Assembly: GCA_001724265.1 (NCBI GenBank)
Contig: MEDY01000028.1
Location: forward strand, 1-64,000
DNA length: 64,000 bases
Direction of reading: 5' to 3'
Origin: Rhizaria sp. SCN 62-66
Taxonomy: Eukaryota
Shown: positions 24,301 through 60,553 of the stretch, in pieces
Layout of the letters: each line of letters opens with the position of its first letter
Numbering within the stretch: position 1 is the stretch's first letter
The notes under the pieces: model-generated
What the model was told of the DNA's origin: nothing
Databases searched by the model: none
What the model saw: only the letters and a program-made list of their open reading frames with translations
Position numbers and translations under genes: made by a program

Positions 24301-24748
24301 GGGATGATGGCAGGCTCTGCAGGGGCGGCGCAACCGCTTTATAAGCAAGTCTAAAGGCCGCAGTGGCGTCGGTCTAGCCCGCGGCTGCGTCAGTTGAGGC
24401 CGTGGAAGCCGCGTACGTGACGGGCTCGAAGTGCGGGTGCACGAAGTGCGGCTCGCGGGCCGAGGCGCGCACTGGCGCGGGCGACGTCGCGCGCGGGAAC
24501 GGCGGCGTGGGGATGCGCTCGGGCGGCCGCACAAGCGCCGCGGCCAGCAAGGGCAATGCTGCGGGCACGAACGTGTTCTTGGTGTGCGGGACGTGCACGA
24601 GCGGCTGCGTCACGCCCTCCGTGCCGTCGGCCTCGGGCGGCGAGGTGAGCGTGATCACCAGGCCCGCGCCGCGCCATGGCATGAGCGAGTCATGCGGCGA
24701 GCGCGGCTCCACGTCGGGGCCGGCGTCAAAGGAACTCAGTTTTGACAT
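15356..24748 (-). CDS. Giant (~3130 aa) low-complexity protein with a Trf4/Cid1-type nucleotidyltransferase/PAP-associated region; 5 in-frame TAG codons
   Basis: ORFs 24374-24748, 24020-24214, 23072-23998, 15695-23044 and 15356-15538 share one frame. They are separated only by TAG (24374, 24020, 23072, 15695, 15539) and end in TAA. Motifs: VVRFVDPDSGVPVSV, LRPLLLTLRRLL, GSLSTFHLTVMLVHYL, DLGALLLGFLRYY, LVLLDP. Confidence 0.7.
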
Positions 24749-25265
24749 CTAAAAGAAGCTGACAGCTTGTGAAACGTGGCAGCGAGGCGGTTCGTCCTCG
24801 GCGCAACTCCGCTCTGCTTCTGTGAAGCCAAGTTTGAAAAGTGAAAAGGGGATGTCCGCAAAATTAACAAAGTGTTACAGTAAAAGACTACATGGAGTAC
24901 TACATATATTGCGATTTCTCAGTCGATACCTCAACAAAACACTGAACAACGGAGTTCGCATGGTACACTAAGAAACTTTAAACGAGTCTTGTAAGCACGC
25001 TCGCGGCTCGTCCCTCTCGTCCAACCACAAACAGCTTTTGTATGACAAAACGGCATGAAATGCACGCTTATATCAAAGTACAAGCGGATTACAATCAAAT
25101 AATAAGATATAACAGATATGTTCACAAGAAATAAAACTAAAATTCACAAACAAAACGTTGCTATATACCAAATAAAACATGTTATAATCGGAGGTTAACC
25201 CCGAACTGTTGGTCACTTAAAAACTCCGAAGCGCTCACTTTGCTCTTGCACACCGTGCGTCGCAC

Positions 25266-35800: not shown

Positions 35801-38800
35801 CTGGTGAATCTGCCCGATGGCCTGCACGGCGCGCAGGTACGGCATCGCGAAGGGCGTGAGGTCGGACGCGCGCTGGCACACGGCTGCGAGCGCCATCACC
35901 AGCGTCGTCGGCGTGACTCCGACGACGCGTAGCGGCATGGCGCCGAAGAACTGCGCCAGCAGCAGCCCGCCCTCGACGCCCAGCGCGGGCTCCTCGTCCG
36001 CCGCGGCGTCGGCGGCCTCGAGCGCGGCGACGTAGTCCGCGTAGCCGTCGGGCGAGGCCATGGCGAAGGTCGAGGGATCGACTGCCGCGGGAGCGGGCGC
36101 GGAGAAGCCCCGCAGCGGCGCCGGCAGCGGCACGCGCGTGCGCAGTGAGGCGTGGAACTCGCTCGCGTGCGCCGCGGCACGCCACATCACGTAGTGGTAC
36201 AGTGACACCGGCAGCGGCAGCAGCTCGTGCGGCGTCGCCGGGAAGACGTTGGGCGTCAGGTCCATCGCTTGACGGACGGTCTGCATGATGCGGCGCGACC
36301 GCGCGGCCAGCAGCTCTGTGTCTGACGGCGGCATCACAGTGCCAGTTGCGGTCACATTCGCGTTCGCAGTCGCTGTCGTGGGGCCGGAGGCGGCGGTGAG
36401 CGGCAGAGTGCCCTGCGTGAGCAGGTGAGCGTACGTGTCCATCGACGCGCCCAGCAGCTGGGACGCAGACTCCGCGGCTGCTGCCGTTGCTGCCGTCGAT
36501 TTGGAGTCAGATAACGCGGAGAGCACGTCTGTGTCGCCGGCGCGGGCAGCCGCGCGGTGCGCGCGCAGCGCCGCGCGCGCGGGCCCGGCAGTGGCGCCGT
36601 ACTCGAGGTTGGCGACCGGGAAGCGGTCCGCAATGAAGGCCTCGCGCAGGTGCGGCAGCCCGACCGCGGGGTGGAACTCACGGCCCGCGGGCGGCGCGCC
36701 GGGCACAGAGCGGAGGTAGTCTGCGCGGCTCGCAATGTCGTGTTCGAGCGTGCGATGCAGCAGCACCCGCTGGAGCTCCGGGTCCACGTCCGCGTTGGCC
36801 TCGGCAAGCCCCGTGGACATGCGCTCGTCCTGCACGAGCGAGAAGAGCGGGCCCGCGGCCGCGCTGCGGCCAGAGGCGCCCCGGCCCGCGGCTCCACCCG
36901 CGCCGGTGCCGCGGCGGGACGCGGCGGGCCGGTCGTAGCGCAGCCCGCGCGGCGCGCCCGCGCCCGCGGACGACATCGCCGCCGCGGGCGTGGCTGTGGG
37001 AGACAGGGACGACGCCGCGCCGGGGCCGGGGGAGGAGACGCGCGCGAGGAGACGTGCCATGACGCGGTCGTGCGCGCGCGCGCTGTCGGCGAAGGCGAGG
37101 CGGCCCTGCGCCGTCTCCGCGGCGGCGGCGAGCGGTGAACGCTGCACGGCCGCAGTGAAGACGCTGCGCTCGCCCCAGCCCAGCCCCCACTCGGCGATCG
37201 CCGTGGCGACGGGGTCGGCGTCAGCGGAGCTCGCGGCCATAGTCGGGGGGCGGGCGACGAGGGCGCGGATGCCGAGCAGCGCGAGCGAGCGCGCGCTGGA
37301 GCGGGTGAGCGACGTCACCCGCGCCGCGCCGGCAAGCGTGGTCAGCGCCGCCGCGGGCGTGTGCGTCACGCCGCCAGTCTGAGCCGCGGCGGACTGCGCA
37401 GACGTTGCTGTGGAGGGGGCGGCGTCCGCGGTGTCGTCCTCGAAAAGGGCGGCGTAGCTCTGGAGCCCGGCCTGGCCCGTGGAGCCCGAGAGCAGGCGTT
37501 CAACGCCGCTCCGGTCCGCGCCTTCGCGGTCAGCGCGCAGACCGAGTCGACCGACTGTGAGCCCTTCGAGCCCCAGCAGGCCCTCGGTGCTGGCCGTCGT
37601 GGCGCCCGTGGAGGCGCGCGCGGAGCCGGTGAGCCCCGAGGCCGCGTTGGCGGCGGCGTTGGCGACGTCGGCGTCGGGGCCTGTGGCCTTAAAGCGCGCG
37701 CGCGCCGTGGACAGCGCCATGAGCGTGCCATCGACCAGCACCACGGCCTCGAACGACCGCGCCGTGGTCCACATCGACGGCAGGAACACGGCGTGCGAGA
37801 GCGGTGAGCGCCGGTCCAGCTCGGCCAGCGACAGCGCCAGTGCTTCGGGCACCGTCGTTGTGTAGACCGAGGCAAGCAGCCGGCCCAGGCACGACGAGCG
37901 CGAGAGCTCGACGTACCGCGGGATCGTCACCGGCGTCGACGGGTTCTCGAAGTTGGCCTCGACGATGCGCTGCGTGAGCGGGTCCAGCAGCGACGCCAGT
38001 GCGTTGCGCGACGCGGGCACCGCCGCGGCGCGCGGGTCGGGCCGCGTGAAGCCCTGCGTCCAGCGCGAGAGCGCGTCGACGGTGCCGCGCGCAGTCTGCA
38101 CGCGCGGGTCGTGCCGCACGCGCGTCGCGTTGAGCAGGTACGGCGACTCGGACGCGTGCGTAGACCGGGCCCAGGCCGAGGCGTTGCGGGCGGCGTCGGG
38201 GTCCTCGCTCTCGGCAGCCGCGAGCTGCTCGAACACGAGCGGCGTCGCGGCCACGGGCGACGCCTGCGACAGCACGTCGCCGAGCACCACGGCGGAACAC
38301 ACGGGCAGCGTGCCCGCGTCGCCCGCGCGCCGGTCGCGCGGCGAGCTCGACTTGCGTGCCTCCGCGGCGGCTTCCATGACGTCGGGCGGGACGAAGTTGA
38401 TCATCACGGCATCGCGCACGGCGTCGGCGATCGAATTTAGCGGCGCCAGCGGGTGCGCGGCCAGCAGCGACTCGGCGTAGCGCACGTACGCCGGGTCCTG
38501 TGCGGCGCGCGAGTAGGCGTACATGACGTGCTCGTGCGACAGCGCCCAGCGCGGCGTCGACGCGAAGACGATCGCCAGCAGCGCCTGCGGCGTGCGGGGC
38601 CGCGCGTAGGCCAGTCCGCAGTCGGAGTACTCGAGCGGCAGCGTCGACGGCGCCAGCGCCGCCGACTAGGACGAGGACGAGGACGCAGTCACTGCAGCAG
38701 CAGCGGCCGCAGCACTGGCACCACCAGCAGCGCCAGCGTCGGGAGTCGAATTTGCGGGGCTGTCGTTCTCGCTGCCAGTGCCGTTGCCGCCGCTGCCGAG

Positions 38801-41800
38801 GTTGTTGTTGCTATTGCCGCTGCGCGAGCGCGCTGCGAGCGTGAAGTGGTGCGAGCACCCGTCAACAACGGCGATGCGCGGCGTGTCAACGTCGTCAGTC
38901 TTCTGACGCCGCTCCTCGACGAAGTCCTCCAGGTCTTGATAACGCGCGAATGCCTTTGTGGCGGCCAAGCCGCGCACGCCGCCCGAGGCCGCGTTGAGCG
39001 CGTTGATCACATCGTCGTCGCCCTCATCATCGGCCTCGGTGCCCGCGGCACCACTGGTGGGCGCGTTGCCCGACTCACCCGCAGTCACGGGGGCCAGATC
39101 ACCCGCGCCGCTGCTGCGCGACGTTTCGTTGATGCTCTTGCGCATCGCGTCCATGGTGCGCATCATCACCAGCGGGTCTGGCAGGTCCTCGAGCCGCAAT
39201 CGAGGCAGGAAGCGCGAGCCCGCCAGCAGCGGCGCCAGCGCGCGCGCCGACGTCGCCGCGCGGGCCTCTGCGGCGGCCATCGTCCGCGACTCAGCCTCGG
39301 TCGCAACTGCCTCACGAAGGTCCTCGAGCATGGGTCCGTTGAGCACGGCGTCGAGCGGGGTCTCCTTGACGTCCAAGTCGGCGGCGGCCGCGCGCGCGGC
39401 GTTGGCGCGCACCGCGGCGGCAAGCAGCGGCGACGGGGCCGAGTTGTCGACGTACGGCGACTGGAAGTATGCCGCCATATCGGCGTCGTCCTGCAGTGTC
39501 CAGTCCATGCTGAGCGAGTCGGTCAGCCCGAGCGCGTGCGCGCGCGCAGCAACCGCCGCGAGCGCGGGCGCGTCGCCCACCACGGCCGCAGCGCGCAGCA
39601 GCGCCGAGAGCGTGGCAGCAAGGAACGGCACGTGATACAGCTCATCGTTGGCGCGCGCCGCCGAAAAGGCCTTGTCCTGGCCCAGGCAGAGGTCGAGCGC
39701 GTAGAGCATGTCGCCCACGGTGTTGACGCCCGCGTCGCGCGCCTCGCGGGCGGACACGCGGCGTCGGTGCGACGCCGCGCCGCCATAGTTACATGCTGTG
39801 GCGCTGTGCACGCGCGACGCCTGCGCACGCAGCGCGGCGCGCGCCTTGGTCTCGAACACACCGGCGACGGCGCCCGGCGCTGAGACAGTCGCGGTCGCGG
39901 CCGTGGCCGTCGCGGCGGCGGGGACGCGGGCCGCGGCCCAGGCGACGTGTGCGGAGGCCGGATGGTGGAATTCGGTTACGCGGACGAGGTCGAGGAAGTG
40001 CGCGACGTCCTCGCCCAGCGTCAACTGCGCTCGCAGCGCCGGGGGCAATAGCGCGGGCATGCCGGTCGCCAGCGCGGGCGCGTCGGCAGCCACAGACGAC
40101 GACGACGAGGACGAGGCAGCTGCAGCAGCGGCGTCAGCGGTGTGCGCGGCGCGCGCGGTACCCGTGGCGACAGCGCGGAACGCGTCGATAGCGACGCGCC
40201 AGACCGCGTCGGCGACCAGAGGCAGGTCCTCGCGCGCGGTGCCGGCGAGCGCGAGCGCGATGGCGGCGGGCGAGGCGAGCAGCAGCGGGTGCGCAGGCAC
40301 GGCCGGCGCCGGCGCGACGGGGATGTCTGCGTAGCTGCGCGCGCGCTGTCCGCCGCGGTCGCCGCCTCGGCGCACCTCGGCGACGGTGACTGTGCGCGTG
40401 CCGACGACGGTGCTGTTGGCGCTGCTGACGGCGTTTGCGGTGCCTGCGGCGCCCGCGAGCAGTTGCCCGCTCGTCTGCGCGTCCTCCGCAAAGCACGCGG
40501 CCATATCGACAGCGAAGCGTGCGGCTGCGGATCCCGCGAGCGCGACCTCGAGCCTTTTCTGCGCGGGGCCCTCGGCGAGCCCGACGGCGCGCGCGATGAC
40601 GGGGCGCATGGCGGGCAGACCGGCGGCCAAGGCCAGCAGACCGGGCGCCGCCTCGAAGCCCGCCACGGGCGCGCCGTACAGAGCGGGGTTCACGCCGCCG
40701 GCGGGCGAGTCGCCCTTAAGGCCGCCGGAGGCTGCTCCTGCTGCTGTGTCGGCTGCTGCTGTGGCAGAAGGGAGTCCGCCGCGCGGGAGGCGGGCGAGGT
40801 GGGCAGCGGGGTAGTGCGCCGCGAGAGCAAGCATCACGGCCGCGTCGGCTGCACGCGCCGTCGCGCCCTCATCACACCGGCTCGCACTTGCACTGGGACT
40901 GGCGCCCGCGCCGGCGCCGGAGGACAGAGTGGCGTGGGGCTCGGCGGCAGCGACGGCGATGGCGAGCGCGGCGCGCGCTGACGGGGCCACGCCACCGATA
41001 GCGAAACAGGGCCGCGCCGCCGAGTCGGGCGCGAAACCAGACTGGGAGAGCGCAGACAGCACGCGCGACGACGCGCCGGGCAGCGCAGCCGCGGCCGCGG
41101 AAGACTTGGACTGGGAGAAGTCCGCCGCCGCAGCGCTCTCTGTGGCGCTGGCGCTCTCTGACGGTGTCGGTGTGGAGGTGGAGAAGGTGACTGACCAGTC
41201 GTCGAAGCCGGCCGAGGCAGCCAGGCCCTGCGCGTCCGAGTCAGCCGCAGCAGTCGACGCAGCCGCCGCTGGAGCAGCAGCAGCAGCAGCAGCAGCGGAG
41301 GATGATGATGAGGGCCCGATCACAGTCGCCGGCGCGGTCGCAGGCGCGAAGGCCGCCGACGACGGTGCGTGCATACTGACGAGCACGCTGACCTCTGCCT
41401 CCGCGGCTGCTGCAATGGCGGCTTGCCAGGCGCGGTACCGAGCGTCGGCGCGCAGGTGCAACAGGCACGCCGCGTCGGCCCACAGCAGCGGCCGCGCTTC
41501 ACGGGGGCTCTGCGCTGCGGCCGCCGCGGGAGACGACGACGCAGAGAACGCGTCGGTGGATGTTGTGGAGTTCGAGGCAGAGGCGGAGTCCGGGGAAGCG
41601 TGCGTGACTGCGCCTGCGCGCATGGCTGTGTTGGCGGCAACCTCGTACCCGGCGTCGCGCGTCACAATCACCACGCCAGCGCCTGCGTCCGCCCCGTCCA
41701 AGCCCTCTGGCGCGCGGAGCGTCGCGCGCAGCGTGGGATGCCAGGGCTCGGCCGCGGTCGCGCCCAGTCCGAGCTAGACCGAGAGCGCGCGGTTCAGCCG

Positions 41801-42910
41801 CGTCGCGCGCTCCGCGTGGCCGGGCCGCGCCAGCTCCTCGGCCTGCAGCCGCGGGCGGGGCGCGCCCAGGTCCGCGGCCGAGGCCGGGACGGGCGGCATG
41901 GCGTAGTGCAGGCGCGCGCGGGTGAGCCCCGCGGCCGAGACCAACGGCGACGACGACGCGGCGACCTCAGCGAGGGCGGCGTCGACGTCGCCGTAGTCGC
42001 CAGCAGCGGCGGCGGCGGAGGTGGTGGCGGCCAGGTGGCGCTGCGCGACCGTGTCCAAGGGGTCCGTGGGAGACAGGTGACCGAACATATGGCCACCGGA
42101 GACGCTGTCCGCGGCGAAGGCGGCGGCGGCGGCGGTGGCGGCGTTGGGAGGGCGGCGGCCGAGGTGCCCGGAGCTGAAAGATGCGGGGGTCGCTTCGGAG
42201 GCATGTGCCCAGCGCCAGCCGCGGCCAGCGCCCGGGCCGCCGGTCTAAGCAGCTGCGTCTGAGAGAGCTCTGGGATCAGCATTTTCGTTGTCATCGCCGT
42301 CGTTAGTGTTGTTGCTGCGCTCACCGTGCGTCGCTGTGGTTGCCGCGGGGTCAGCGGCGGCAAATGCGGCGGCGTCGTAGGGGCGCGTGGCGTAATCGGG
42401 ACCGTCGAAGTCGTCGTAGTCGGCGGCGGAGCGCATGACGCCGTCCTGAGAGTCCGCAGTGTACATGAGATTGGTCAGCGGGGGAACTGCGTGCGAGCGG
42501 TCTGCAGCGCTGTGGTGGTCGTCGGTCGCGAGCGTGGAGGGCGCGCTGAGAGCGTCAAGGTCAAGACTCGAGCGGCGCATGACGTAGAAGGACTTGTTAA
42601 GCTTGCCTGTCTTGATCGTGTCTTCGAGATCAAAGCGTGCCTGGAGCAGAGTAAGCTGCTCCAGAGTTGCCCACTCCTCCTTAGTCATGCTCATCGACCG
42701 GTGCGCGGCCGATGCAATCTGTGAGTATTCGCGCTCGGCGCTGCTAGTCGACGGGGTGATCGGAGAGCGCGTGGAGGCGTCGCTGGGCGCGGGCGCAGAG
42801 ACCGCAGATGGTAGTGAAGACGCGGTTGTGTTTCCTGCGGCGGTGAGCGCGGAAGCTCGCACGCGGCGCCGAAGACGGGCCAGGCAGGGACCCGAACGCG
42901 GCGTTAACAT
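32894..42910 (-). CDS. Giant (~3338 aa) PPR-containing, probably mitochondrial protein; 3 in-frame TAG codons
   Basis: ORFs 42245-42910, 41774-42088, 38666-41701 and 32894-38524 are one frame, joined across TAGs at 42245, 41774 and 38666 and ending in TAA. The N-terminus is Arg-rich and presequence-like. 35-aa-spaced PPR-like repeats (SFYNMWIAFHARNCDVARLRHSVQTMTSYGHAVHA / NTATVIMQAALRHNDPDLAITIF) lie near 34830-35110. Confidence 0.7.
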
Positions 42911-43580
42911 ACCGGTCTAAAAGGGGCAAGCGGGTGATTGCATGCAAACGCGGATGTATGGACAAGGGGGACATGAGTGAGCGAGGTGCGGAGTGGGGAG
43001 GACGATAGACCGCAAACTCAGAGGAACGGCAGAAAGAATTGAAATCACAACAATAGAAGAAATTCCCCAGAAAGATGATATAACAACACATTAAGTTTGG
43101 CAGCTTTATATAACATATGTAAATTAGATATATATCTACGAAGACTGCATCTCACAAGCAATGCAGTAAGTACTCCAGCCTCCGCACCGTGGGTGGTGCA
43201 GCGATTGTGCCGAGTCCCGGCTGCAAACCACGCCGGTCTGACACCCAGTCATCTGCTCTCGCATGCTTAAGTCCGAATGACGGGCAAAGGCAAAGTTTCA
43301 TCGACCATTACAGATTAATAAAGACAATAGAACGTGTCAGTTGTTTAATTTTGCGAATTTATTTCTCACATGTGTTGTTCATATGCGAGCTATCATGCAT
43401 CTTGATCATCGTGGATACGCGTCATTATGTGTTTGTGTTATTTGTTTTTGGAAGCAGAGACTAGCGTATCGATCAGCATCCTATCTTTCTCATTGCTATT
43501 TTCAATTACCCAATTTCATCATCATCGTCAAAACTCCTCCTCCTAACCTAGAGTTGTCCTCCGAACGTAACAAAGCAGTT

Positions 43581-43633: not shown

Positions 43634-46019
43634 TTACTCGAGCTTGGCGAGCTCCTCCTTGAGCGCAGCCTGCGCGTCGCGGATGGGGAGATACTGGAGG
43701 CGGATGCTGGTGATGTTGGCCTCGGTCTTGTTAGGCTTCTTCTTCTCCCCCTCGGGGTTCTCGGCCTCCGCAGCCGCGGCGGCAGCGACGGCGGGGTCAA
43801 CCGCGAGGATGGCCGGGATGTCGGCCTCCTTGACGCCGTTCTTCTCGAACATGCGCGCGAGACGACCCAGCTCAGCATCGAGGTCGGCGATCTTGGCCGC
43901 GAGGTACTTTCCGCGGGGCACAACCTTGGTGAAGTCGTCGATCGAGCCCTGGAGCAGGCCCATCTCGCCCTGCAGCGCGGCGAGGCGCTCAGAGTTTTTG
44001 GCGCGGATCTCGGCCTTGCAGTTGGCGTACGTGGGGCTCGCCATGAGCGCCTCGAGCGTCTGGCACTGCTGCTGCAGCTCGCGGTGCTTGCGCTCAGCCT
44101 TGACCAGCTCTGCAACGGTATCCACGAGCCCCTCGACGACGAGGAAAAGCTGGATGTCAGACGAGACGACGACGGACATGCAGCCCGACACGGGGACAGT
44201 GGCCGCGGCGGCGTCGGCCATGATGGCCTTGACGGTGTCGGTGAAGGACAGCGTGGCGATGTTGCGCGCCTCCTTGTTGACGAGCGCGGCGACGGCGGCC
44301 GTCTTGGTCGAGACGAACACAGGCGGCTTCTGCGCGTTCTTAAGGTTCACGGACGCCTTGGCGGCGCGGAGGGCGCCGACGATCGTGTCGATGAGCGCCA
44401 TGTCGGCCTCGGCCTCGGGGGAGTAGAACTCCTGCGTCACGGCCGGGACGGGGTAGGGCGCGACCATGATGGAGCCCGAGAGCACGCGCTTGTCGGCGAC
44501 GGCCGCGCCCCCGGCGGTGGCGATGCGGGCCGCCGTGCGCTCGGCGTGACCCGGGAGGCGGTGCCAGAGCTCCTCGGTGACGAAGGGCATCATCGGGTGC
44601 AGCGCGCGCAGGATCGTGTCGATGCAGTAGAAGAGCACGGCGAGGTGCGACTGCGCAGAGAGCTTGTCGGCGTCGGTGCTGGTCTCGTCGATGCGGACGA
44701 CGGGCTTGATCATCTCGAGGTAGCGCGAGCACAGCTCATCGACGAAGAAGCTCTGCACGGCCTCGGTCGCATCGCCGAACACGTAGTTGGTGAAAGCGTT
44801 GTCGACGACGAGGAGAGCGTTGTGGAGACGGGACAGGATCCACGCCTGCGCGGTCGAAGCGCCACCGGCGGCGGCCATCTGGGCCACGAGCTCGGCGTTG
44901 CTGTTGGGGGCCGCGAAGTCGGCGGGGAAGTTGCGGAGCGCGAAGCGCGTGGCCTGCCACATCTTGTTGCAGAATGTGCGCGCGACGACCAGGCGGTTGA
45001 TGTCGAGGTTGATGTCGGTGCCCTGGCGCGTGTAGGCGAGCAGACCGAAGCGGAGTGCGTCGGCGCCGCACTGTGAGATGCCGTTGGGGAAATCCGCGGC
45101 CTGGTTGGCCTGCGCCTTGAGCACCTCGGCGGGGTCGAGGTTGCCATTCTCGAGCGTGGCCTGCAGCGCCTGGAGCGAGATGCCGTAGACGACGTCGAGC
45201 GGGTCGATGACGTTGCCAAGCGACTTAGACATCTTGCGACCGATGCGGTCACGCACGAGCGTGTGCAGGTACACCGTGGTGAAGGGCAGCTTGTCCGTCA
45301 GTTCGAGCGACATCATGACCATGCGCGCGACCCAGAAGAAGAGGATGTCGGAGCCCGTCTCGAGGAGGTGGCCGGGGAAGTAGCGCGCGAGGTCCGACGA
45401 CTGGGTGGGCCAGCCCATGACGGAGAAAGGGAAGAGACCGGAGGAGAACCACGTGTCGAGCACGTCAGGGTCCTGCTCCAGACGCAGCGCCTCGCCGGGG
45501 AAGCGCTCGGCGGCGAGCTTCTCGGCGGCCTCAAGCGAGGACGCGATGACCCAGCGGTTCATATCCTCCTCGGCCGCTGACGAATCGGCGCCGGCAGGGT
45601 GGGCGTAGTAGGCCGGGATGCGGTGGCCCCACCAGAGCTGGCGCGAGATGCACCAGTCCTGGATGTTGTCGAGCCACGAGTACCACGTCTTCTCGAACTG
45701 CGCGGGCACGATGGCGAGCTCCTTGTTGCGGACAGCGTCGGCGGAGCGCTTGGCCATGTCGTCGCACTTGACCCACCACTGGGGGCGAATGATCGGCTCC
45801 ACAATATCCTTGGAACGCGAGCAGAGACCGATCGACATGGGATTGTTGGCCTTGCCGCGGTACAGCCCGGCGGCCTCGAGGTCGGCGATGATCTTCTCGC
45901 GGCACTCATAGCGGTGCTGGCCGGCGTAGGGGCCGGAGTTGGAGTTCATGTAGCCGCGGTCGTCGAGGATGTTGATGCGCGGCAGCGAGTTGCGCTCGCC
46001 GCAGAGGAAATCGTTGGGG

Positions 46020-46050
<31 letters not shown>

Positions 46051-47365
46051 TGCCGAACTCGGGCTTGACCAGCACTGCGTCCTCGACGACCGTGACGATA
46101 CGGTCCGCGACGAAGGGGTGGACGAGCTGCTTGCCGACGAGGTGCTTATAGCGCTCGTCGCCCGGGTACACGGCGACGGCGACGTCGCCGAGCATCGTCT
46201 CGATACGCGTGGTCGCGACGACGATCTCCTCGCCCGTGGGGGAGTCCTTGACCTTGTAGGCGAACGAGTGGATGACGCCGACCTCGACGGGGCGCGGGAA
46301 GCCGGGCACCTTAAGCATGGTGGAGCCCTCAACGTCGACGTGGTCGACCTCGATGGACGAGATGGCGGAGCGCAGCGCGCACGACCACGACACGATGCGG
46401 TTCGCGCGGTAGATAAGCTGCTTGGCGTGCATGCGCGTGAATGCCTCCTGGACGGCGGCGGCGCACATGTCGTCCATGGTGAAGCGGTGGCGCGACCAGT
46501 CAACCGAAGCGCCGATCTGGCGCACCTGATCCTGGATGCGGTCGCCGTACTGGTCCTTCCACTTCCACACGGCCTCGACAAAGGCCTCGCGGCCCAGGTC
46601 GTGGCGCGACTTGCCCTCGGTGCGCGCGAGCTGCTTCTCGACAACAACCTGCGTAGCAATGCCGGCGTGGTCGAGTCCGGGCACCCAGAGCGTCGACTTG
46701 CCGTTCATGCGGTTCCAGCGCACAACGGAGTCCTGGATGGCGACCGTGAGCGCGTGGCCTAGGTGGAGCGAGCCGGTGACGTTGGGTGGCGGGAGAACGA
46801 TGACGAACTTCTCGTCCTTGGTCTCGTCGGGCTTGTACAGGTCGTGGGCCTCCCAGAACGCGTCCCAGGTCGACTCAACAACGCTGGGGTCGTAGGCGTC
46901 GGCCATGGGCTCGGAAAAGTCCTTCTTGGTGCCCTTGGGGACCGAGGTGACGTAGCGCGTGGTGACGTCGCCGAACTGGGCGGCGCCCTTCTCCTTCTTC
47001 GGAGCAGCGGTGGACATGGGGTGAGCGGTGGGGAAACTGAGTGCGGAACGCAGCAGTGCACTGGGCTTGGGCGCAGAAAGAAAAGACTTAACGGCGCTGG
47101 GGGAAGCACGCGAGAAGCCTTGAAGGGAAACGGGGGTGAAGCTACTACTGTTGCGTGTCGGGACAGCAAAAACGGTAACTGGAGCAGCGGGAACAGCAGC
47201 GGCAGAGGCGGCGGCGGTGCGGGAACGGGAAAGAGAAGAAACAGAAGAGGAGAAACACAACGGTGAGGCCAGGGAAAGAGTAGTTGAGTGACGTGAGCCG
47301 AGGGTCAACAACAGATTCCTTGCAGCACTGGTGATTCGGCTACTGCGCTTCGCAACTGAGAGCAT
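43634..47365 (-). CDS. VARS: Valyl-tRNA synthetase with an N-terminal mitochondrial-type extension (second ATG at 47017)
   Basis: PPPNVTGSLHLGHAL (HIGH), WCISRQLWWGHRIP, DVLDTWFSS and KMSKSLGN (KMSKS). TAA stop. Confidence 0.97.
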
Positions 47366-48333
47366 ACACAGCGGGCACAAGCGCCGAAGTGAAGTCTGAG
47401 CGGAACAGACACAGAATAAGGAACAGGTGGATTGAAGCTGTGATTAGACAACGGCATTGAAAATGCGATGCACGCCAAGACACAGGCCTTTGAGCCCAGA
47501 AGCAGCTGCGCAACACCAACAACAGCGGGCGGGGGAACCGCCCAAGCCGAAACCAATTTCACACTCAAGCACAGCGAATCTCAACACAAGATAATGGAGC
47601 TGAACAGAACACGTGTGCGTATAACAAATAAAAGAAGCGATAAGTCAAGATAACACCACATGGAGGCACTGCATGATCGACAAAACCTGGCCGAAACGCA
47701 CTCCAGCCGGTCCGCCTCGGTGAGGACAATTTTGTGGCTGACAAAACACTGACCGCCCAGCCGGTACCGAAAAAAAATTATTCACGCTTCGTCAAGCGTT
47801 CGTTTTCTCCCAATTGGTCTCCTGTGACAATGCGGTCACAATATTATGTGGTCTTCTTTAAATGTGCACATCACGTATTATTATATGCGCTGTCTATTTG
47901 AATTTTTTATCTGCGCTGTTTTTCACCTGCACTTCGGATTTCCGCTTGACTCGTCAACGCTCCGTTGCATATCATGCTGTTCGCGTTTGTCAGTTCGCGG
48001 AGCCCTACTTCGCCCAGATGGCTTATGGCGAAGGCGCGCTCCAGAAAAAAAAATAAAAAAAAATTAGAGTGACAGTAAGCACAGATCCACCAGTTCCGGC
48101 ATTGCAATGAAATTGTGTGAGTGCATGACATGATATGACATGGAGACACGATATTATCGTGTGACGACGCTCTATGATAGATGAAATAAACGTGTCGTAT
48201 ATAAAGCTTATTCGTTGTCGTTCGATACAAAGATTGTAATTGTATTATAATTTAACGTTAGTTTAAAGCAGAGAACTGAGAAATAAAGTAATATGTGTTC
48301 CACTAGTGAGCTGCGAGGTTTTTGCGATGACTC

Positions 48334-51300
48334 TTACTTGCTGCGGGCAGCACCGGCGCCACGACCGCGGCCGCCGCGACCTCCACGGCCGCCGCGCCCC
48401 CCGCGGCCGCCGCCCCCGGTGGCACCAGCGCCGTCACCAAAAATGTCGTCGCCGTCGCCATCGCCCGTGTCAGCCCCTGCGCCAGTGGCAGCTCTACCGC
48501 CGCCGCTGTTGATGTCGTCAAGGTCGTCGCCGTCGGCGTCGCCCGCGGCACCCGCGCCGCCCTCAGCTGCGCGCATCGCAGCCTCCATCATACGCGCCAT
48601 GGGGTCCTCGTCAGCGGCGCCGCCGGCGCTCTCGTCCTCCTCCTCGTCCTCGCCGTCAGCTGCAGCAGCGACGCCCGCAGCGGCGGCATCGGCGGCAGCG
48701 GCCCCGTCGCCGCCGTCCGCGCCAGCGCCCGCGGCCCCGTCGCCGCCCGCAACGGCGCCCGCGGCGGCCCCGTCGGCGTCGTCGGCCTTCCATGCGAGGC
48801 CGCCAGAGTAGACCGTAGCCTGAATCGAGTGCTTGACCTTAGCGCGGCGCAAGATGTGTTCCTCGACGGTGCCCGTGCAAGCAAGACGGTAGATGGTGAC
48901 GGGCTTCTTCTGCCCAATGCGGTGCACGCGGTCCATGGCCTGCGCGTCCATCGTCGGGTTCCAATCGTTGTCATAGAAGATCACCGTGTCAGCCGCAGTG
49001 AGGTTGATGCCCAGTGCGCCCGCGCGCGTGGAGAGCATGAAGACGAAGTAGTCCTTGTTTTCGGTGAACTCACGCACCATGTCGCGCCGGTCCGCGAGCT
49101 CCGTGCCACCGTCAAGACGGAAGTACTTGTGCTTGACCTGCTTCATCACGTCCTCGAGCAGGTCCAGCACTTGCGTGAACTGCGAGAAAATGAGCACGCG
49201 GTGGCCCTCGCGCCGCAGCTGCCGCAGCAGCTTCACAAGGCGCTGCATCTTGCCAGACTCGGCCAGTAGGCGCTCCAGCGGCGCGGGCGCGCGCACGGCG
49301 GCCCACGGCGCGTCGCCGCCCGCATCTGTGGCTGCCGGAATCAGCGGCGCCAGCGCTAGCGTGGGCGGGGCCGCCAGCGCGGCGGCCGTCGCCAGCGCGG
49401 GCCACACGGCGCGCGCGTAGCGGGCGAGCTCCACTGCCTCGGAGTCGACGCGCGCAAGGCGGTGGCGCCAGTGCACGCGGCGCTTATACCCGGGGCCCTT
49501 GGCACCCGCCGCGGCCGCCTCTGCGGCCTCTGCGGCGGCGGCGGCGGCGGCGTTGGCCGCGGCCTCCTCCTCGGTCACCAGCGGGTCGACGGGCACGGGC
49601 GTCGCGAGCACCGTCACAGTCGACAGCGGCGCCGGCAGCGGCAGCAGCGACACAGGCACGCTCTGCGCGCCGGGGTGCGTAGCGCGCGCGGCGCGCATCA
49701 GCCGGTCGGCGAGCGCGAGCATCGGCATCGCGCCCACGGCCAAGGCGAGCGCGTCCGAGGGCGCGTCGTACAGTGGGAGCGCAACGGCAACCGGGCCTGT
49801 GGGCGGCGCGGTGGACGACGACGGGTACGTCACCAGGGCCTCAGTCGCGGACAGCGCAGGCGTCGCGACGGCGGCGGCAGCAGCGGCTGCCGCGGCCGCC
49901 GCGGGCGAAAGGCCGACATGCGGCACGGGCGCGAGCGCGGTGGGCTCGTTGGCCTTGGAGGTGCCCTTTTTGCCGTCGGTTCCGTCAGCGTCGTCGTTGT
50001 TCGCGTCGCCCTCAGCAGCGTCGCCAGCGTCGTCGTTGCCTTCCTCCTCTTCATCGTCGTCATCGTCGCCGCCTTCGGCGCCAGTGCGCGGCGCCGAGAG
50101 CGCGGGAACGTGGAACTCGGGTCCGCGGCACTCGTTCGCAACGCGGATGTCGCACAGCAGCGACACCGACGCCGGCAGCACGGCACCCGCACCCGCCGGC
50201 CACCACGCCCCCGCGGGCGCAAGCAGCGAGCGCTGTGGCGTGTAATGACCCGCAACCGCGTTGGCCGTCGCCGACGCGCGCGTGTTGGCGCCCGTCAGCA
50301 GCGCAAGCTCCCAGCCATTGGTGAGGTAGCCGAAGCGCGCGCGCGCCGAGCCCGCGGCGTGGGGCACGATCGGCGGCGCGCTCGCGATGGGCAGCGCCAC
50401 GCACACCACGCTCAGCAACGGGCGCGCGCGCGCAAGCCACGCCGCCGGGTCCGCGCAATGAAGCGAGTCGAGCGCGAGCAGCCCCGCTGTCGAGGGCAGC
50501 GATAGCAGGCGCGCGCGGTGGCGCTGCGCGACGGCGAGTCCGCGCGGCGACCACAGCATCGGCGTGTTGGAGAAGCCGACCGCGGTGCTCAGCGCGGACG
50601 CGGCGCCTGCGTCGGCAGTGGGCTGCAGGCCGAAGAGCGAGAGGAACGTGTCCTCGACGTCCAGCGGCACGTCGCCAGCAAGCACAGTGCTCTGACCAGC
50701 AGCCAGAGTCGGCCTCGCCTCGACAACGGGCGCGGGTGCAGAGGTAGACGCGGGCAGCGCAGTGTTAGATGCACCTGCGCTAGTAGCCGCAGCCGCAGTG
50801 GCAGCGGCAGCCTCCGTGGCGTCAAGCATTTGAACGAGCGGAAGCGCGTCCGCGGCGGCGCGCGCGGCGGCCTGAGACAGCAGCTGCGCGCGCGTGCGCG
50901 AGCGGCCGTAGCCGTCGTGCAGCGTGAGGAACGCGTGGGGGTCGTCATTCGCGCGCGGGGCGCGACTGGGCGTGAGTGCCGACGGCAGCGCGGGCAGTGC
51001 GGGCAGCGGCGTGAGCACGTCGTCGAACAGAGCGCGGCCTGAGCACGGCGCGCGCGGGTACAGGCGCAGCGCCGCTGCGGTGGCAGACTCGGAGGCTGCG
51101 TCGGCATCGTCCAGCGCGCGGCGCGCGGCCAGCAGCGCCGCGGGGGACGCAAAGCAGCGGCCCTGCACAGCAGCGTCAGCGCTATCGCGAGCGGGCAGCT
51201 GCAGCTGCGCGGAGACGCGGTAGTGGCGCACGCGCTGCTCGCGGTCGCGCTCAGCGATGATGTGCGCAAGGAAACGAGAGAGCGCGCCTGCGGAGCGCGC

Positions 51301-54300
51301 GAACTCGACCTCACCCGCCGACAGTGACGCAAAGCGCGTGAAGCTGAAAGCAGAGTTCGCGAGCACAGTCGAGTTGCCCTGCGTTGAGCTAGAGCGCATG
51401 CAGTCGGTCAGAGATGCATGGACGCGGTCAGAGCGGAAGATAGAGAGCTCCGAGCACAGTAGGCGCTGGCGCGCGGCGACTGAGGGAGTGGCAGAGAGCT
51501 CGATGCCGCGCCACTCAGCCTCGACGCCGCTGCACGCCGAGCGCGCAGTGCGCAGTGCGCCGCCGCTGATCCCCGAGGCGTCACCAGCACGGCCCGCGAG
51601 CGCGGCCGCCAGCGCAGCGGCGACGCCCGTGAGCGGGGCGCCAGCGGCCGGGGCAGCAACGACGGGGCGCAGCACGCGCAGCGAGCGCATGTCAGCGTCC
51701 CACGCCGCTGCGGGGTCGGCGCCGGGGCGCGCGCGAGGACCACGCCAGACGTCGACGCCCGCGGGGTCAAGCAGATCGAGGTCAAGCACAAGGCGCGGCA
51801 GCAGGTAGCTGATGGCGTTGCCGTAGAGCCCCGCCGACAGCGGCGCGACAAGGTCGCGGTACGGCAGCGTCGCGGCCGCGCTCGCGGACGCGCCGGCGGG
51901 AGCCGCGGCCTGCTCGGCGGCGCCAGCAGAGCCGCGCACGGGAAGGCACAGTGTGTAGGGCTGCGTGAAGGAGAACGGCGTGGTGGCCTGCGGTGGCGAG
52001 AAAACGTGCGTGTGGTTACACGCCTTGCGCAGCTGCATCACCGTGTTGACGGCATCGGACGACGACAACGCCGTCGCGACCGCGCCGGAGCCGCCCGCGC
52101 CGCCTGCCCCACCGGCGCCACGCGCGCCCGCGCCACTGTGCACGGCAGCGAAGGCGGCTGACAAGGCCGCGAGACGGCGCGCGGCGCGCTTGCTCGTGGG
52201 CGCCACTGCCGCCGTCGCCGTCGTGGCGGCGCGCGCGTCCGAGCTAGGCAGGAGCGCGCGCGCGGCGATGGCGGCGGCGTCGGTGTCGTCACCGGCCGCG
52301 ATCGGCGTCTCAGGTGCGGTGTATGCCGCAAGTGCGGTGGGCACAGGGTTGTAGTCGCCAAACAGCCACGAGGGCACCGCGGGCGCGGCGGGCGCAGCGG
52401 CACCAGCAGCGGCCGGGGCAGCGGCGGCAGAAGGCGCGGCGTAGCCTAGTGCGCTCATGGCGGCTGTGCCGCCGAGTCCCTCGTAGATCTTGCGCTGCGC
52501 GACGGAGAGGTAGCAGGGCACGAGGCGCTCGATCTTGGGCGCGAGCTCGTTCTGCACGTCGCGCTTGACGCGGCGCAACATGAAGGGTTTGAGCAGCACG
52601 TGCAACCTGCGCACCTGGTGTTGGTTGAAGCCCGTGACCTTGGCGATAACGGACGACGACGCGGACGCGGAGGAGCCCGCCACGGCTTCGGACTCGATGT
52701 CCTTGGCGAACCACTCGGAGAACTCATCGTGCGAGTCGAAAAACTCGGGCATAATGAAGTGCAGCAGCGCCCACAGCTCCGCCATCGAGTTCTGGATCGG
52801 CGTGCCCGTGAGCAGCAGACGGTTGCGGCAGCGCAGCGACAACAGCGTCTTCCAGCGCTGTGACATGGCGTTCTTGATGGCCTGCGCTTCGTCGAGGATC
52901 ATGAACTGCCATTGCAGACGCGAGAAGTACGGATGGTCCTGCACCACGATGTTGTACGACGTCACCAGCACGTGGAACGGCGCCGACTCGACGTACAGGT
53001 GCTTCGGGTTCCAGAACTTACGCAGCACTTTACGTTCAGCCTGCGTGCCCCAGTACGGCAGCGCGCGCAGACGCGGGCAGAACTTGGTGAGCTCCTGCTG
53101 CCACTGGTGCAGCGTCGAGTTGGGGCACACGACGAGGAACGGCCCCCAAATGTTGCGCGAGCACGCCAGATACGCCAACAGTGCAATGGCCTGGATCGTC
53201 TTGCCGAGACCCATTTCGTCGGCCAAAATGCCGTTGATACCTTGGTCGTAGAGGTGCACGAGCCAGTTGAGACCCTTGCGTTGATAGGGCTTGAGTTCGC
53301 CCACGAACGACGATGGTTCGACGATTTCACCGTCGCCGGGCGCGGGCGCGCTCTCTAGCGCAGCGGCAGCCGTGCCCTCGTCGCCCTCGCCCATGCCGCG
53401 CACCAGCGCCGCCTGCGCGGCCGCGGCCGCGGCGGCCTCGGCCATGGCGTCGGCCGCGTCGGCGTCGCAGTTGAGCGCGCGCGCCTCGGCCTGCGCGATC
53501 ACGGCGGCAGAAGTGCCGGCGAGAATCGCAGCGTCGTTGCCGCGCGAGTGCTCGAATGACTTGGACAGCGACTGTGCGGCTGCAAGCTCGCGCTTGTACT
53601 TGTCCGCGTTAGCTTGCACGTTAGATATGTAGCTCGACGTCGCGAGCTGCGCCTCTTCGTCGATGTTGTCGCCCTCAGCATTGCCGCCGGCGACGGGCGC
53701 GAATGTCTGCGTGACGTGGCCGCGGTCGGGCACGTCCATGCCAAGCCGCTTGCCGATGAAGTGCGAGAAGATCTCCGTCTGCGTGAGCATGAACTGCAGT
53801 TTGCGCCGCTGCCGCTCGCCCTCGCGTTCCTCTTCCTCCCGCTTGCGCCGCTCGTCGTCCTCCTTGAGCTGGCGCTTGAGCAGCTCGCTGGCGTCGCGCT
53901 CGTGGCGCCGCCAGTACTGCGCCATCTCGCGCACGAGCTTCTTGGTGCGCTGCGGCACATCGCGCGTGCCGCGGTACGTGCGCGCAAACCGACGGCGCAG
54001 CACCACCGTCACGGCAGCGGCCACAGCGCGCACGCGCAGCTGCGCCACGGCCCGCGCCGCGCGCATCGCCGCCGCGCCAGCGGACACGGCCTCGGCGACA
54101 TCGGCCCACACACTGCGCGCGCGCCCGCACGGCAGCAGCTGCGGCAGTAGCACATCTTCCTCGGCCGTGTATCGCGAGGTCAACGCAGTCGCCGTGGGCG
54201 CCGCGGGGAAGCGCGACGACATGACCGTGCGCAGGCCCAGCGGCACGAAGCCAGCGCGCTTGGCCGGCTGTGAAGCGTCTTGTTCGAGCTTCACCGTGAC

Positions 54301-56886
54301 AGCAGATGCGGGGACGGCAAAGTACGACGCGGCATCCGTCGCCCCCGCGGCCTCGAAAGCGGCGAGCGCGGCGGCAGTGCGCGCGCGCGCGGTCTCAGCG
54401 GCGGCTTCTGCGGCGGCGTGAGCGGCCCAGACCTGCTCCGGCACGCGCGGCGCGACGCCGGCGCCCATGACGTCGCATGGGGCCGCCGCGGGCACGGCCG
54501 CGAAGCGCGCGGGCAGTGTCTGCCGCGCGCACGCCGCCAGCAGCGCGAGGTCGGCGACGGCGTCCTCGGAGGCGTCATCCGCGCTCGCGCTCGCGGCAGC
54601 GGCCGCGGCGGCGGCAGCGGCGGCCGCGGCGTCTGCGCTATTGTCTTTGGCCGCGGTGGCGGCGGCGGCGGCGGCGGCGGCCTTGGCGGCGCGCTCGACC
54701 TCCGGCGCGGGCAGCTCTGTGTAGCGGCCCGCGAGTCCGCGCAGCGCGTGCCAAGCCAGCCAGCGCAGGCGCGCCACGGCGTCGGCCAGCGCCAGCCGCG
54801 CAGCCGCGGTCGCGGACAGCGCGTGCGCGCCGGCGGCAGCGCGGGTCAGGGCCTGCAGGCGGCGCCGAGCCGCGGTGGCCGCGTCGGTCGGCGCGCGCCG
54901 CTCTGTCGCTGCAGCAGCTGACTCAGCCTCTGAGGCAGTGACATTAGGCGCGATTTCGGCGTCGCTGGGGGGCAGCACGATGGGCGCGGGCGCCGAGGCC
55001 GCGACGGCGGCTGCGATGAACGCAGAGGGGTCGCGCGCAGCCACAGCAGCATCGGCGGAGCCCTCGGTTTTGACCTTGGCGGCGCTCGCACCAGCGGCGG
55101 TGTCGTCGTTGTCCTCGAGATCGGTGCCGTCGTTGGCCCAGTTGTTCGCGCCGGGCGCGGGGCGCGGCAGCGCGACCCCCGCGGCGGCCAGCACGGCCTC
55201 CGCGACTGTGTGCTCTCCCGCAGCCTTGGACTTGGCGTTGGTCCCCGCCTGCGCCGCCGCCGCTGCCGCCGCCGCAGTGTTATGCGTGGAGCGCGCGACG
55301 ATCTCGGCGGCCGCAGCGACGAGCGTAAGTCGGAGCGCGAGCGCGGGCGTCAGCTGCGGCGGCGGCAGCACCACGGCGGCCTCCGCGCCCGCGGTCGCGG
55401 CGGCGACGGCGGCGGCTACATCGGCTGCGCCCGCGGCGACGAAGGCCTCTGGCGCGCCCGTGGCCGCGGCGCCGGCCTTGGCCGCAAGCACGGCGAGCGC
55501 AACACCCGGCAGCCGGCGCGCGGAAAAGGCCGGAAAGCGCGCGGACAGCGCGGCTGCGAGCAGCCGCGCGAGCGCCGTCTCGTCACGCGCGGTCGAAACG
55601 ATGGGCTGCGCGTGGGCCGCGGCGCCGCGCGCGGCAGATGTGGCGCGTAGCCACGCGATCGTCGACGCCGGTGCGGACGCGGGCAGCGCGGAAGCCAGAC
55701 GGTTCAGCTCACCCAGGCGCGCCACCGCGGCAGAGAGGGCGGCAGACGACGCGCGTGGCGCACTGGGCGCCGACGTCGACGCAGACGCAGACGCGGCGGC
55801 AGCGGCGGCGGCGGCAGCAGAGGAAAAGACGGCGAGCGGGGTGCTGCTAGACGCAGACGCAGGCGCAGGCGCCGGGACAGACGCGGGCGGCGGCCGCTTG
55901 ATCTGGCTGGTCGCGGAGGGAACGGGAGCGGCTGCCGAAGGAGCGCCAGTGACGCCGAATGCACCCAGCGTGCCCTGTTGAGTTGCGCTAGTATGCGTGG
56001 GGGCGGGGGCGGGGGCGGGGGCCGCGGGCAGCGCGGCGGGCACGTCTGCGTCGCCGGAGCCGGGCACGCGCGCGCGCTTCACTGCGGGCTCCACGGCGTC
56101 CGCGCTGGCGCTTGATGAGGGCAATGGCGCAGTCGCAGTCGGAGCCGTCACGGGAGCAGGCGTGGCGGCGGTGGTGATAGGGACGCTGGGGCCGGCGGGC
56201 TCGGGCTTGACGGCCGCAGACACAGCGGGCACGACAGTGGCAGCAGCGGCGGCGGCAGGGGGTGGGCCATAGGCCTGCTGAGACCCAGGAGCGGCAGCAG
56301 CAGTGGGGGCAGAAACAGGGGACGCGGCAGCGGCAGACAGAAGCGTATGTTGTTGCATTTGCTGCTGTTGCTGCTGCTGCTGTTGGAGCATAAGCAGGTG
56401 TTGTTGTTGTTGTGCCTGCTGTTGCTGCTGCTGTTGCTGTTGAATGAGCAGCATTTGCTGCTGCTGCTGTTGTTGTTGCTGCTGCTGCTGTTGTTGCAGC
56501 TGATACATTGCCAGCTGTTGCTGCTGCAGCAGCAGCTGCTATTGTTGCTGTTGCTCAAGCGCGTGCTGCTGTTGCTGCTGCATCAACGCCTGCTGTTGTT
56601 GCTGCTGCTGTTGAAGCAGAAGCGCGGCCTGATGGCGCAGCAGCTGCGTCTGTGTAGCGGCGCGCTCGCAAGCGGCCTGCGCGGCGGCAGCGTGCGCCTG
56701 CAGACCGGCCAGCGTCTCGGGTGCCGCGCCCTGTGCCGCCGCGTCGGACAACGCGCGCTGCGCCGCCTGCGCCGCAAAACACGCCGCGGCGTACTCCGCG
56801 TCGGCCGCGGCGACCGCAGCGGAGACGGAGGCAGCAGCGGGCGCGGGGGTGGGGCCACCGGGAAAGCCGGCGGATGCGGAGTGCAT
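48334..56886 (-). CDS. INO80: INO80 chromatin-remodelling ATPase (~2850 aa); 1 in-frame TAG inside the N-terminal poly-Gln
   Basis: DBINO domain (KKLVREMAQYWRR..RQRRKLQFMLTQTEIFSHF), GILADEMGLGKT, LDEAQAIK, split helicase with a long insertion, STRAGALGINLTAAD, QAMDRVHRIGQ. The upstream ORF 56539-56886 is in frame across the TAG. TAA stop. Confidence 0.93.
56351..56612 (-). repeat. CAG/CAA poly-glutamine coding repeat in the INO80 N-terminus
   Basis: Runs of (ctg/ttg)n on the + strand. Confidence 0.9.
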
Positions 56887-57567
56887 CGAGTCAGAGAGGC
56901 GACTGGCGGTGGGTTATCGACGGCGCGAAAGCTGCCACGTAGATGTGTGTCGCCGAAATGTGTGTGAGTGTTGGAACTGAAAGATGAAGACGCTCTGGTA
57001 GTTCTAAGGTTGAGTGAGAGCAAAGGCGGGGAAATCATAAACGGTGAGTCGAACGAAGATAGCAGGATCGCAACAGCACTTGATCCAGGATTTATCTTAA
57101 AGACTTGCAGCAAAACAATGTGGCACGTGTCAGGTTCAAAAATAGAGCCAAGATACTACGTGTTTGGGAAGACTTCGGCATTGATTATGTCATGCCTTGC
57201 TGATTGTGCTCCTCAGGAGTGCACTCTGGGGAGCAGAGAGAATGATCTTGATTGGACTCACAGGAGAGCGGAGTTCACAACAGATATAATAACGCAACAC
57301 AGGCACACCATCACTCGGAAAACAGGCTGAAGCACATTGTAACACTCCCAACGGATGATAAAACGAGCGCGAGATGGGGCAATTGATGATCTGGTGCTAA
57401 GCCGCACAGAGCTGATTTTTGCGAACCGACCGACCGTTCGACTGTTCGACCACGAACAAGGGAGATGACCGAACGGGTCTTGATTTTGAGACTCTCGAAC
57501 GCAAACCGTTGCTCCTCTAGTCGCTTAACCTCTTTGAGCACTTAGCTGCGCTGCGTTTTTAGCTCAC

Positions 57568-60380: not shown

Positions 60381-60500
60381 ACGCGCAGTGTGCAGTGTTG
60401 CAGATCTGCGGCCGCCGTATCGCGCAGTGCACGGTCGCGGGAGACACACGTGGGGTGGGGCCGGGGCCGCGTAGCATGTGGTGTTGTTGCTCAGTTGCAA

Positions 60501-60553
60501 TGTAGCGCAGTGTAGCGCAGTGTAGCGCAGTGTAGCGCAGTGTAGCGCAGTGT
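60501..60553. repeat. 10-bp minisatellite, about 5 copies
   Basis: (TGTAGCGCAG)x5 downstream of the cullin. Confidence 0.9.

Follow-up and report, generated by a model that had tools for sequence, protein, structure and literature searches.

In-frame UAG codons in three giant genes of a GC-rich cercozoan appear to be read as sense, with glutamine as the best single guess for their meaning

The stretch of DNA analysed here, hereafter the window, comprises 64,000 nucleotides (positions 1 to 64,000 of contig MEDY01000028.1, assembly GCA_001724265.1, deposited as Rhizaria sp. SCN 62-66), and it carries nine TAG codons inside the coding sequences of three very long minus-strand genes. Gene A holds five of them, gene B three and the gene of an INO80-type chromatin remodeller (gene C) one, among approximately 15,200 codons in all. 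That TAG is read in these genes as a sense codon is well supported. Glutamine is the best single guess for its meaning, and we give the full statement, that UAG is a sense codon for glutamine, slightly better than an even chance. The code in which UAG specifies glutamine is the one that we take to be NCBI table 15.

When only TAG is read through, three open reading frames (ORFs) of 3172, 3398 and 2859 codons are obtained, with 6, 4 and 1 TAG, respectively, and with neither TAA nor TGA. Gene A (15356..24874) encodes a giant low-complexity protein with no Pfam family, ends in TAA and holds its coding TAGs at 24374, 24020, 23072, 15695 and 15539. Gene B (32894..43090), which encodes a giant orphan protein and also ends in TAA, holds them at 42245, 41774 and 38666. 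The INO80 gene (48334..56913) is one 2859-codon open frame ending in TAA, with Pfam matches to SNF2-rel_dom (1.7e-77), DBINO (3.1e-30) and Helicase_C (2.5e-24); its single TAG, at 56539..56541, is codon 116 from the first ATG of the ORF. The remaining TAGs of the first two frames, at 24749 (gene A) and 42917 (gene B), lie 0 and 6 bases before the likely ATG, where the guanine-plus-cytosine (GC) content rises from approximately 0.5 to 0.7; both end a TTTTAG sequence like that of an intron acceptor and were therefore counted as non-coding.

Based on a codon-usage coding score trained on 7225 codons of conserved genes, all 12 segments delimited by starts, TAGs and terminators had positive frame-0 values, in the range of 0.08-0.43 bits per codon. 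In each of the 12, both remaining coding-strand frames were negative, and an opposite-strand frame was positive in two segments (0.15 and 0.13), below the frame-0 value. The INO80 frame scored 0.28 bits per codon upstream of its TAG and 0.25 downstream, both in frame 0, and gene B scored 0.19-0.39 in frame 0 in all four of its segments. Past each of ten TAA or TGA terminators, the following 60 codons were negative in all six frames, with a GC content of 0.34-0.63. Beyond the gene A TAGs at 15695 and 15539, GC remains at 0.7-0.9, and the drop comes only with the TAA. The standard code would divide gene B into ORFs of 1036 and 1924 codons that share a frame and abut directly, without a spacer. 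Additionally, frame 0 of genes A, B and C contains no TAA and no TGA, and their other frames contain 26 TAA and 206 TGA. The gene ends agree: TAA closes 11 of the 16 genes, TGA five and TAG none, in a small sample in which five of the 16 have no Pfam match or a sub-threshold one only. A random-nonsense model built from codon usage expects 68-71% of such changes to be TAG, and nine TAGs out of nine have a P of 0.03-0.045 under it, which is modest evidence when taken alone. The earlier note on this window, which had been made from the letters alone, claimed that UAG means glutamine; the part of the claim by which TAG is translated stands on the 12 coding segments and the 16 gene ends, and the part that names glutamine is not established. 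Separately, a local coding-score screen for additional exonic TAGs was dropped because antisense frames passed it too, so that it was not specific.

It is very unlikely, in our view, that these TAGs are untranslated, whether as genuine stops (in pseudogenes or in split genes), as errors of assembly, or as parts of short unrecognised introns. The organism does have a GT-AG intron ending in TAG, and four apparent in-frame TAGs (4405, 8665, 24749 and 42917) lie upstream of a start or at a splice acceptor; in GC-rich DNA, hundreds of codons can pass by chance before a frame closes, mutation here reaches TAG more readily than the other stops, and INO80 could start at an ATG 11 codons past its TAG. 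Nevertheless, the frame-0 score and the high GC content continue over every TAG, whereas at true gene ends GC falls to the values given above, and the two halves of gene B abut, whereas spacers of at least 450 bases, with GC down to 0.34, separate other genes. Pseudogenes would not keep frames as long as 2458 and 1923 codons clear of TAA and TGA. As to introns, the 30 bases on each side of the nine TAGs have a GC content of 0.60-0.85 and lack a pyrimidine tract, unlike the inferred intron of this window; moreover, contigs from a polyA RNA library are colinear on parts of genes A and B, and no joint from the RNA run X4 was among the 15 joints listed (310 further joints exist). Against an assembly error, a second assembly has the same letters, though possibly from the same sample. 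The read-level comparison, which covered a 20-kb stretch with the eight TAGs other than the INO80 one, gives weak support: three of these TAGs (38666, 41774 and 42245) recur unchanged in contigs of run X3, but this run is perhaps the window's own source and is therefore not independent support.

The immediate surroundings of the TAGs were the starting point of the glutamine proposal. As the earlier note had stated, positions 56560-56537 of the minus strand read GAG CAA CAG CAA CAA TAG CAG CTG, within a CAG/CAA/CTG low-complexity tract, rich in glutamine and leucine, that we delimit at 56416..56610 (minus strand) with Tandem Repeats Finder and the codon rows. The same program finds a 27-base tandem array at 56516-56608 inside this tract, and when its repeat units are set in register, the column of the TAG reads CAG, CAG, TAG, CTG. 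The other quoted contexts are likewise present, in frame, in long minus-strand ORFs: SHA*QAQPQA (23072-23074), PQQTPDP*TQR (15695-15697) and DAAA*TGG (42245-42247), where the asterisk is TAG. That list of contexts holds for what it quotes and misses the TAG of gene B at 38666..38668 (minus strand), which stands in TCC TCG TCC TCG TCC TAG TCG, a (TCC TCG)n serine run that predicts TCG at that position. The comparison sequence SAAAQTGG also exists, with its CAG at 37379-37381, and is the sole other AAA.TGG in 11 genes; its likeness to DAAA*TGG, which had been offered as support, amounts to a motif of 7-8 residues in Ala/Gly-rich sequence with unrelated flanks (35 of 93 bases identical, ungapped). 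The label of a PPR protein, given to gene B on the same occasion, finds no support, since the whole protein has no Pfam family at E<=0.01 and its C-terminal part matches PPR_2 only, with E=0.22 and 12.1 bits vs. a cut-off of 30.

To weigh the residues against each other, we built a neighbour-composition classifier on genes A, B and INO80. Over the nine TAG sites, it ranks glutamine first, with leucine 0.9 log units behind. Glutamine is the best-fitting centre residue at four of the nine sites, vs. 33% of true glutamine sites; the corresponding rate is 7.1% among all sites (P=0.0024 for four of nine) and 10% among true leucine sites (P=0.009). The summed glutamine-minus-leucine score of +0.9 is compatible with nine random glutamine sites (P=0.16); its fit to leucine is marginal (P=0.059), and its fit is poor to Ser, Glu, Lys and Trp (P<=0.002), as it is to Tyr (P=0.026). 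Thus, the context statistics modestly favour glutamine, with the glutamine-like signal resting largely on the INO80 site.

Several results weigh against this reading, and they concern the contexts, the usage of TAG and the direct evidence alike. With the TAG of INO80 in a CAG/CAG/TAG/CTG column and that at 38666 in place of TCG, context tracks ancestry; the same logic would therefore give serine at 38666. CAG- and TCG-derived TAGs are to be expected because mutation alone predicts such sources: from the codon usage of these genes, the expected origins of TAG are CAG (36%), TCG (20%) and GAG (17%). Context thus reports the ancestral codon and not the meaning, and what it shows is that the poly-Gln TAG descends from CAG. 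When the INO80 site is left out, the classifier ranks glutamine 19th of 20, and five of the nine sites are Gln-poor, which has a P of 0.049 for random glutamine sites. Usage points the same way: none of the 237 glutamine codons of conserved genes is TAG and all nine TAGs fall in the low-complexity set (P=0.0036). No coding TAG lies in any stretch covered by a Pfam family, genes A and B having no family and the INO80 TAG lying far upstream of the domains; these scans bear out the earlier caveat that no TAG falls at a conserved domain position. A Pfam scan of 67 further TAG-holding ORFs found one family, with the TAG outside the match (the scan took 67 of 81 extra ORFs; of the other 14, seven were short and seven overlap the peptidase gene, the sense ORF of which had a scan of its own). 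The window contains no tRNA gene by ARAGORN and no Rfam match. The search for homologues of gene B of near length returned none, and the shorter matches were three database fragments of gene B itself, of 722, 149 and 104 residues. Residues 380-1579 of gene B, compared by HMMER with 1.84 billion representatives, gave two matches, both to itself; there is therefore no homologous column for any gene B TAG. Among the RNA contigs on genes A and B, none bridges a TAG under the 31-letter rule, and the sole contig that reaches one (24374) extends 19 letters beyond it, short of that rule. An independent DNA run, X6, covers no TAG among the pieces listed.

The usage figures are informative beyond glutamine. 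The conserved genes (7800 codons) contain no TAG, and they do use TTG (43) and CTA (24). None of their 776 leucine codons is TAG, which, with all nine TAGs in the low-complexity set, gives a P of 0.0007 for leucine. If TAG means glutamine, it makes up less than 2% of the glutamine codons (nine vs. 510 CAA plus CAG). Given these P values for its absence from conserved genes, TAG is therefore not in regular use as a synonymous codon for any residue; it is either a young codon or one disfavoured by selection where sequence matters. Its absence is somewhat less surprising under glutamine than under leucine, a modest difference.

Such a distribution also fits an alternative that we consider quite unlikely, in which UAG undergoes read-through with no one settled meaning, or stands for another residue (Ser, Glu, Tyr, Lys or Trp). 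Ambiguous decoding would be a near-cognate reading of a weakly recognised stop, at an early stage of change, and would be tolerated only where the residue does not matter. The location of all nine TAGs in low-complexity sequence, with none in the 7800 conserved-gene codons, accords with it, as do the differing ancestries at 56539 (CAG) and 38666 (TCG) and the fact that TAG is far rarer than comparable minor codons. Additionally, G follows one of the nine TAGs vs. approximately 46% of codons there that start with G (rough P=0.03). On the other hand, none of the 16 genes terminates on TAG, which fits a full loss of the stop function; with leaky read-through, genes with three and five TAGs would give little full-length protein; and for Ser, Glu, Lys and Trp, the context scores are poor if the sites are sampled from those residues. 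Across the nine TAGs, the following base is C in four cases, A in three, and G and T in one each; this G-poor position could be a context preference or chance.

A further alternative is that UAG means leucine, as in exLh, a rhizarian (Sainouroidea) from Lygus hesperus. This sister lineage of Guttulinopsis translates UAG as leucine and keeps UAA and UGA for termination (Panek et al. 2017, PMC5304391). Leucine could have been reached by shared descent with exLh or by a parallel anticodon change of tRNA-Leu(CAA) to CUA, a change that would be tolerated because the leucyl-tRNA synthetase does not read the anticodon. We consider this reading unlikely, and yet it has several observations on its side. 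The INO80 tract is rich in both glutamine and leucine, and the next repeat unit has CTG in the column of the TAG; around the TAG at 41774 the sequence is hydrophobic, RALSV*LGLG; exLh, which among organisms with a described variant code is the nearest, has UAG=Leu, a further point against glutamine, and its genes end in UAA (56) or UGA (15), with which the stop usage of the window agrees (PMC5304391); and a second UAG=Leu lineage is described in ciliates (PMC11687900). Conversely, leucine is the best-fitting residue at none of the nine sites and fits poorly at five of them, vs. 10% of true leucine sites, and TAG is two mutations away from the dominant leucine codons CTG and CTC. Furthermore, exLh has 384 UAG in 71 conserved genes, mostly at conserved leucine columns (PMC5304391), whereas not one leucine codon of the conserved genes here is TAG; an exLh-like code in full use is made less likely by this result, with which a rare leucine codon would still be compatible. 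On the premise that TAG is a sense codon, glutamine is fairly likely, leucine a minor prospect and anything else a smaller one.

How much weight leucine deserves depends on the affinities of the organism, for which the valyl-tRNA synthetase (ValRS) gene of the window (43634..47443, minus strand, identified by Pfam, without TAG and ending in TAA) is our basis. Among named organisms, the cercozoans Guttulinopsis vulgaris (60% identity) and Mataza sp. (55%) have the closest ValRS sequences. The cullin of the window, compared with the ESM Atlas, was uninformative about affinities. Our tree is a quick maximum-likelihood tree of this single gene, with 33 rows, few named cercozoans and exLh not among the rows. 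In it, the window pairs with a metagenome sequence of 76-80% identity, and the pair falls inside an 11-row clade with Guttulinopsis (Shimodaira-Hasegawa-like approximate likelihood-ratio test, SH-aLRT, 100), itself inside an 18-row clade with Mataza (100). On this gene, the organism is placed in Cercozoa, in what is probably the clade of Guttulinopsis (Sainouroidea), a position that speaks for leucine by way of exLh. The caveat of the earlier note that leucine could not be fully excluded is thus weightier than its author supposed, given the Guttulinopsis clade and the UAG=Leu code of exLh. Nevertheless, the window is not the sister of Guttulinopsis in the tree, and Guttulinopsis itself probably keeps the standard code (PMC5304391), because of which shared descent of the change with exLh is unlikely.

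The window DNA is present in bioreactor, wastewater and activated-sludge runs, and the polyA RNA library has 41% of the sampled words. Sainouroids have been reported to be abundant in treatment plants. The sole sainouroid genome found, that of Rosculus vilicus, is reported to have 37.7% GC, and its base composition is not close to that of the GC-rich organism of the window. A ValRS search of metagenome contigs, from which 80 loci were kept, yielded one locus from the same organism (2.5 kb). Over these 80 loci, tblastn gave stops inside the alignments in 13, none of them in the clade of the window. A ValRS query against prokaryote genome contigs, made in search of mis-binned contigs, returned only bacterial matches, at <=40%. 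ARAGORN found no tRNA gene in the metagenome loci L001, L002, L070 and L071.

The next-closest metagenome locus, L002 (ValRS 60-61%, in the same 11-row clade), has no in-frame TAG in its ValRS gene. At the 3' end of a PX-domain gene, at 803-882 on the minus strand of the locus, it carries 26 uninterrupted in-frame TAGs, flanked by ...CAG CAA AAC CAA CAG CAG before and CAT CAA CAG TGA after, in a tract coding for glutamine and histidine. Three other genes of L002 end in TAA and have no in-frame TAG. The (TAG)26 run could equally be poly-Gln written in TAG or a harmless late nonsense codon followed by repeat expansion in the 3' untranslated region, and is suggestive only. A different metagenome contig, L073, of low GC content (0.36), has a ValRS alignment with 13 in-frame TAA and two TAG; it is probably from a ciliate in which both UAA and UAG (UAR) are sense codons, unrelated to the organism of the window.

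In the explanation that we favour, the window comes from an uncultured, GC-rich cercozoan protist of bioreactor and wastewater metagenomes. Its TAGs, so few in number and all in fast-evolving low-complexity parts of three very long genes, look young or poorly tolerated, and wherever a repeat reveals the ancestral codon, a single point mutation separates the TAG from it (CAG in the Gln/Leu tract of INO80, TCG in the serine run). UAG would be read as glutamine, its most likely meaning, presumably via a tRNA with the anticodon CUA derived from tRNA-Gln(CUG), and the recognition of UAG by eRF1 may have been weakened alongside the appearance of this tRNA(CUA). A more far-reaching account, which we regard as possible and put forward tentatively, is that a free-living, GC-rich cercozoan captured UAG independently and recently in evolution; terminator use would be gone, and sense UAGs would so far occur only in unconstrained low-complexity tracts of giant genes.

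Nuclear code changes outside ciliates are rare, and changes of UAG with UAA kept are rarer still. Changes of the latter kind were first described in 2017 (PMC5304391), and ciliate cases were added in 2024 (PMC11687900). If the sense reading is true, the window would provide a second rhizarian case and the first genomic DNA with sense UAG found for this group, exLh being known from transcripts. If the capture is indeed independent and young, it would be the second code change known in Rhizaria and would offer a natural snapshot of early stop-codon reassignment, and together with the UAG=Leu code of exLh, it would make this cercozoan group a second hotspot of UAG evolution outside ciliates. We found no literature report of a GC-rich cercozoan with a reassigned UAG, subscription journals being outside the search. 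Public wastewater and bioreactor runs, including one of polyA RNA, contain the organism, and the deciding data, from further contigs, a tRNA(CUA) and eRF1 to metaproteomes, may therefore already exist. A practical consequence is that gene callers using the standard code split these genes, as seen in the three gene B fragments of the database.

As for the rest of the window, its genes are eukaryotic and GC-rich, with a GC content at third codon positions (GC3) of 0.8-0.9 in coding sequence and spacers down to 34% GC. Most are single open frames, and at least one canonical GT-AG intron is present. This intron, inferred from the sequence and a domain alignment, lies in the mitochondrial processing peptidase gene (4142..4407, plus strand); it has a GC content of 0.56 and a pyrimidine tract and ends (4402-4407) in TTTTTTAG, and its final TAG (4405), which only looks in-frame, is the splice acceptor. 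In the peptidase gene, a GTTTAG precedes the ATG by 4 bases, and in genes A and B a TTTTAG precedes it by 0-6 bases (24749-24754 and 42917-42925); genes A and B may have introns in the 5' untranslated region or a trans-splice acceptor directly before the start codon. These two genes are neighbours, with more than 3100 codons each and no Pfam family, and encode giant, alanine-rich, lineage-specific proteins. Further Pfam matches in the window are to cullin, DNA polymerase delta subunit 2, serine carboxypeptidase, mitochondrial processing peptidase, enoyl-CoA hydratase, mitochondrial ribosomal protein L17 and a MORN protein. A GCIP-domain gene lies close to the ValRS gene both in the window (26648-28633 and 43634-47443) and in L002 (7526-9322 and 3687-7274); this proximity may be a remnant of shared gene linkage, though order and strands differ between the two. 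The minus-strand open frames 11462-13534 and 13236-14960 overlap by approximately 300 bases in different frames, and the downstream gene of the pair probably starts at an ATG later than the first in its frame. Approximately 120 bases past the stop codon of the cullin gene, a 10-base tandem repeat (GCAGTGTAGC; 5.7 copies, 97% matches) occupies 60497-60553.

Among known systems, the nearest by descent is exLh, the only rhizarian with a variant code described in PMC5304391, where its tRNA is said to await a genome. The organism of the window resembles it in probably being a cercozoan allied with Guttulinopsis, in having UAG alone as a sense codon, and in terminating on UAA and UGA with UAA the commoner. 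It differs from exLh in having no TAG in its 7800 conserved-gene codons, in that its nine sites are not leucine-like, and in its coding GC3 of 0.8-0.9. Because Guttulinopsis probably has the standard code and exLh uses UAG heavily in conserved genes, the change described here is more likely independent of that in exLh.

The closest parallel in the code itself may be Iotanema spirale (Fornicata), in which UAG means glutamine, UAA is the main stop and UAG makes up approximately 8% of the glutamine codons (PMC5304391). Both have a UAG-only change with UAG as a minor codon, and the code table would be the same if glutamine is right. Iotanema belongs to an unrelated supergroup, and its UAG meaning was shown by conserved columns and a likelihood test, whereas the TAGs described here lie outside conserved columns. 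In phyllopharyngean ciliates, UAG means leucine in one uncultivated lineage and glutamine in Hartmannula and Trochilia (McGowan et al. 2024, PMC11687900). The likeness lies in a UAG-only change with UAA kept, recognised in metagenome-derived genomes, and leucine and glutamine outcomes both occur within that ciliate group; unlike in the window, the reassigned codon is described there as widespread, and suppressor tRNA genes were found. Codes with UAR=Gln, known from ciliates, hexamitin diplomonads and others (PMC5304391), would share the glutamine outcome, if that is correct here; the code of the window is not a UAR code, because TAA terminates 11 of the 16 genes and never occurs in frame. In these sources, glutamine is the commonest published outcome of such reassignment. 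The kind of change seen in the window, a UAG-only reassignment with UAA and UGA kept as stops, is thus already known from them, with glutamine in Iotanema, Hartmannula and Trochilia and with leucine in exLh and one ciliate lineage.

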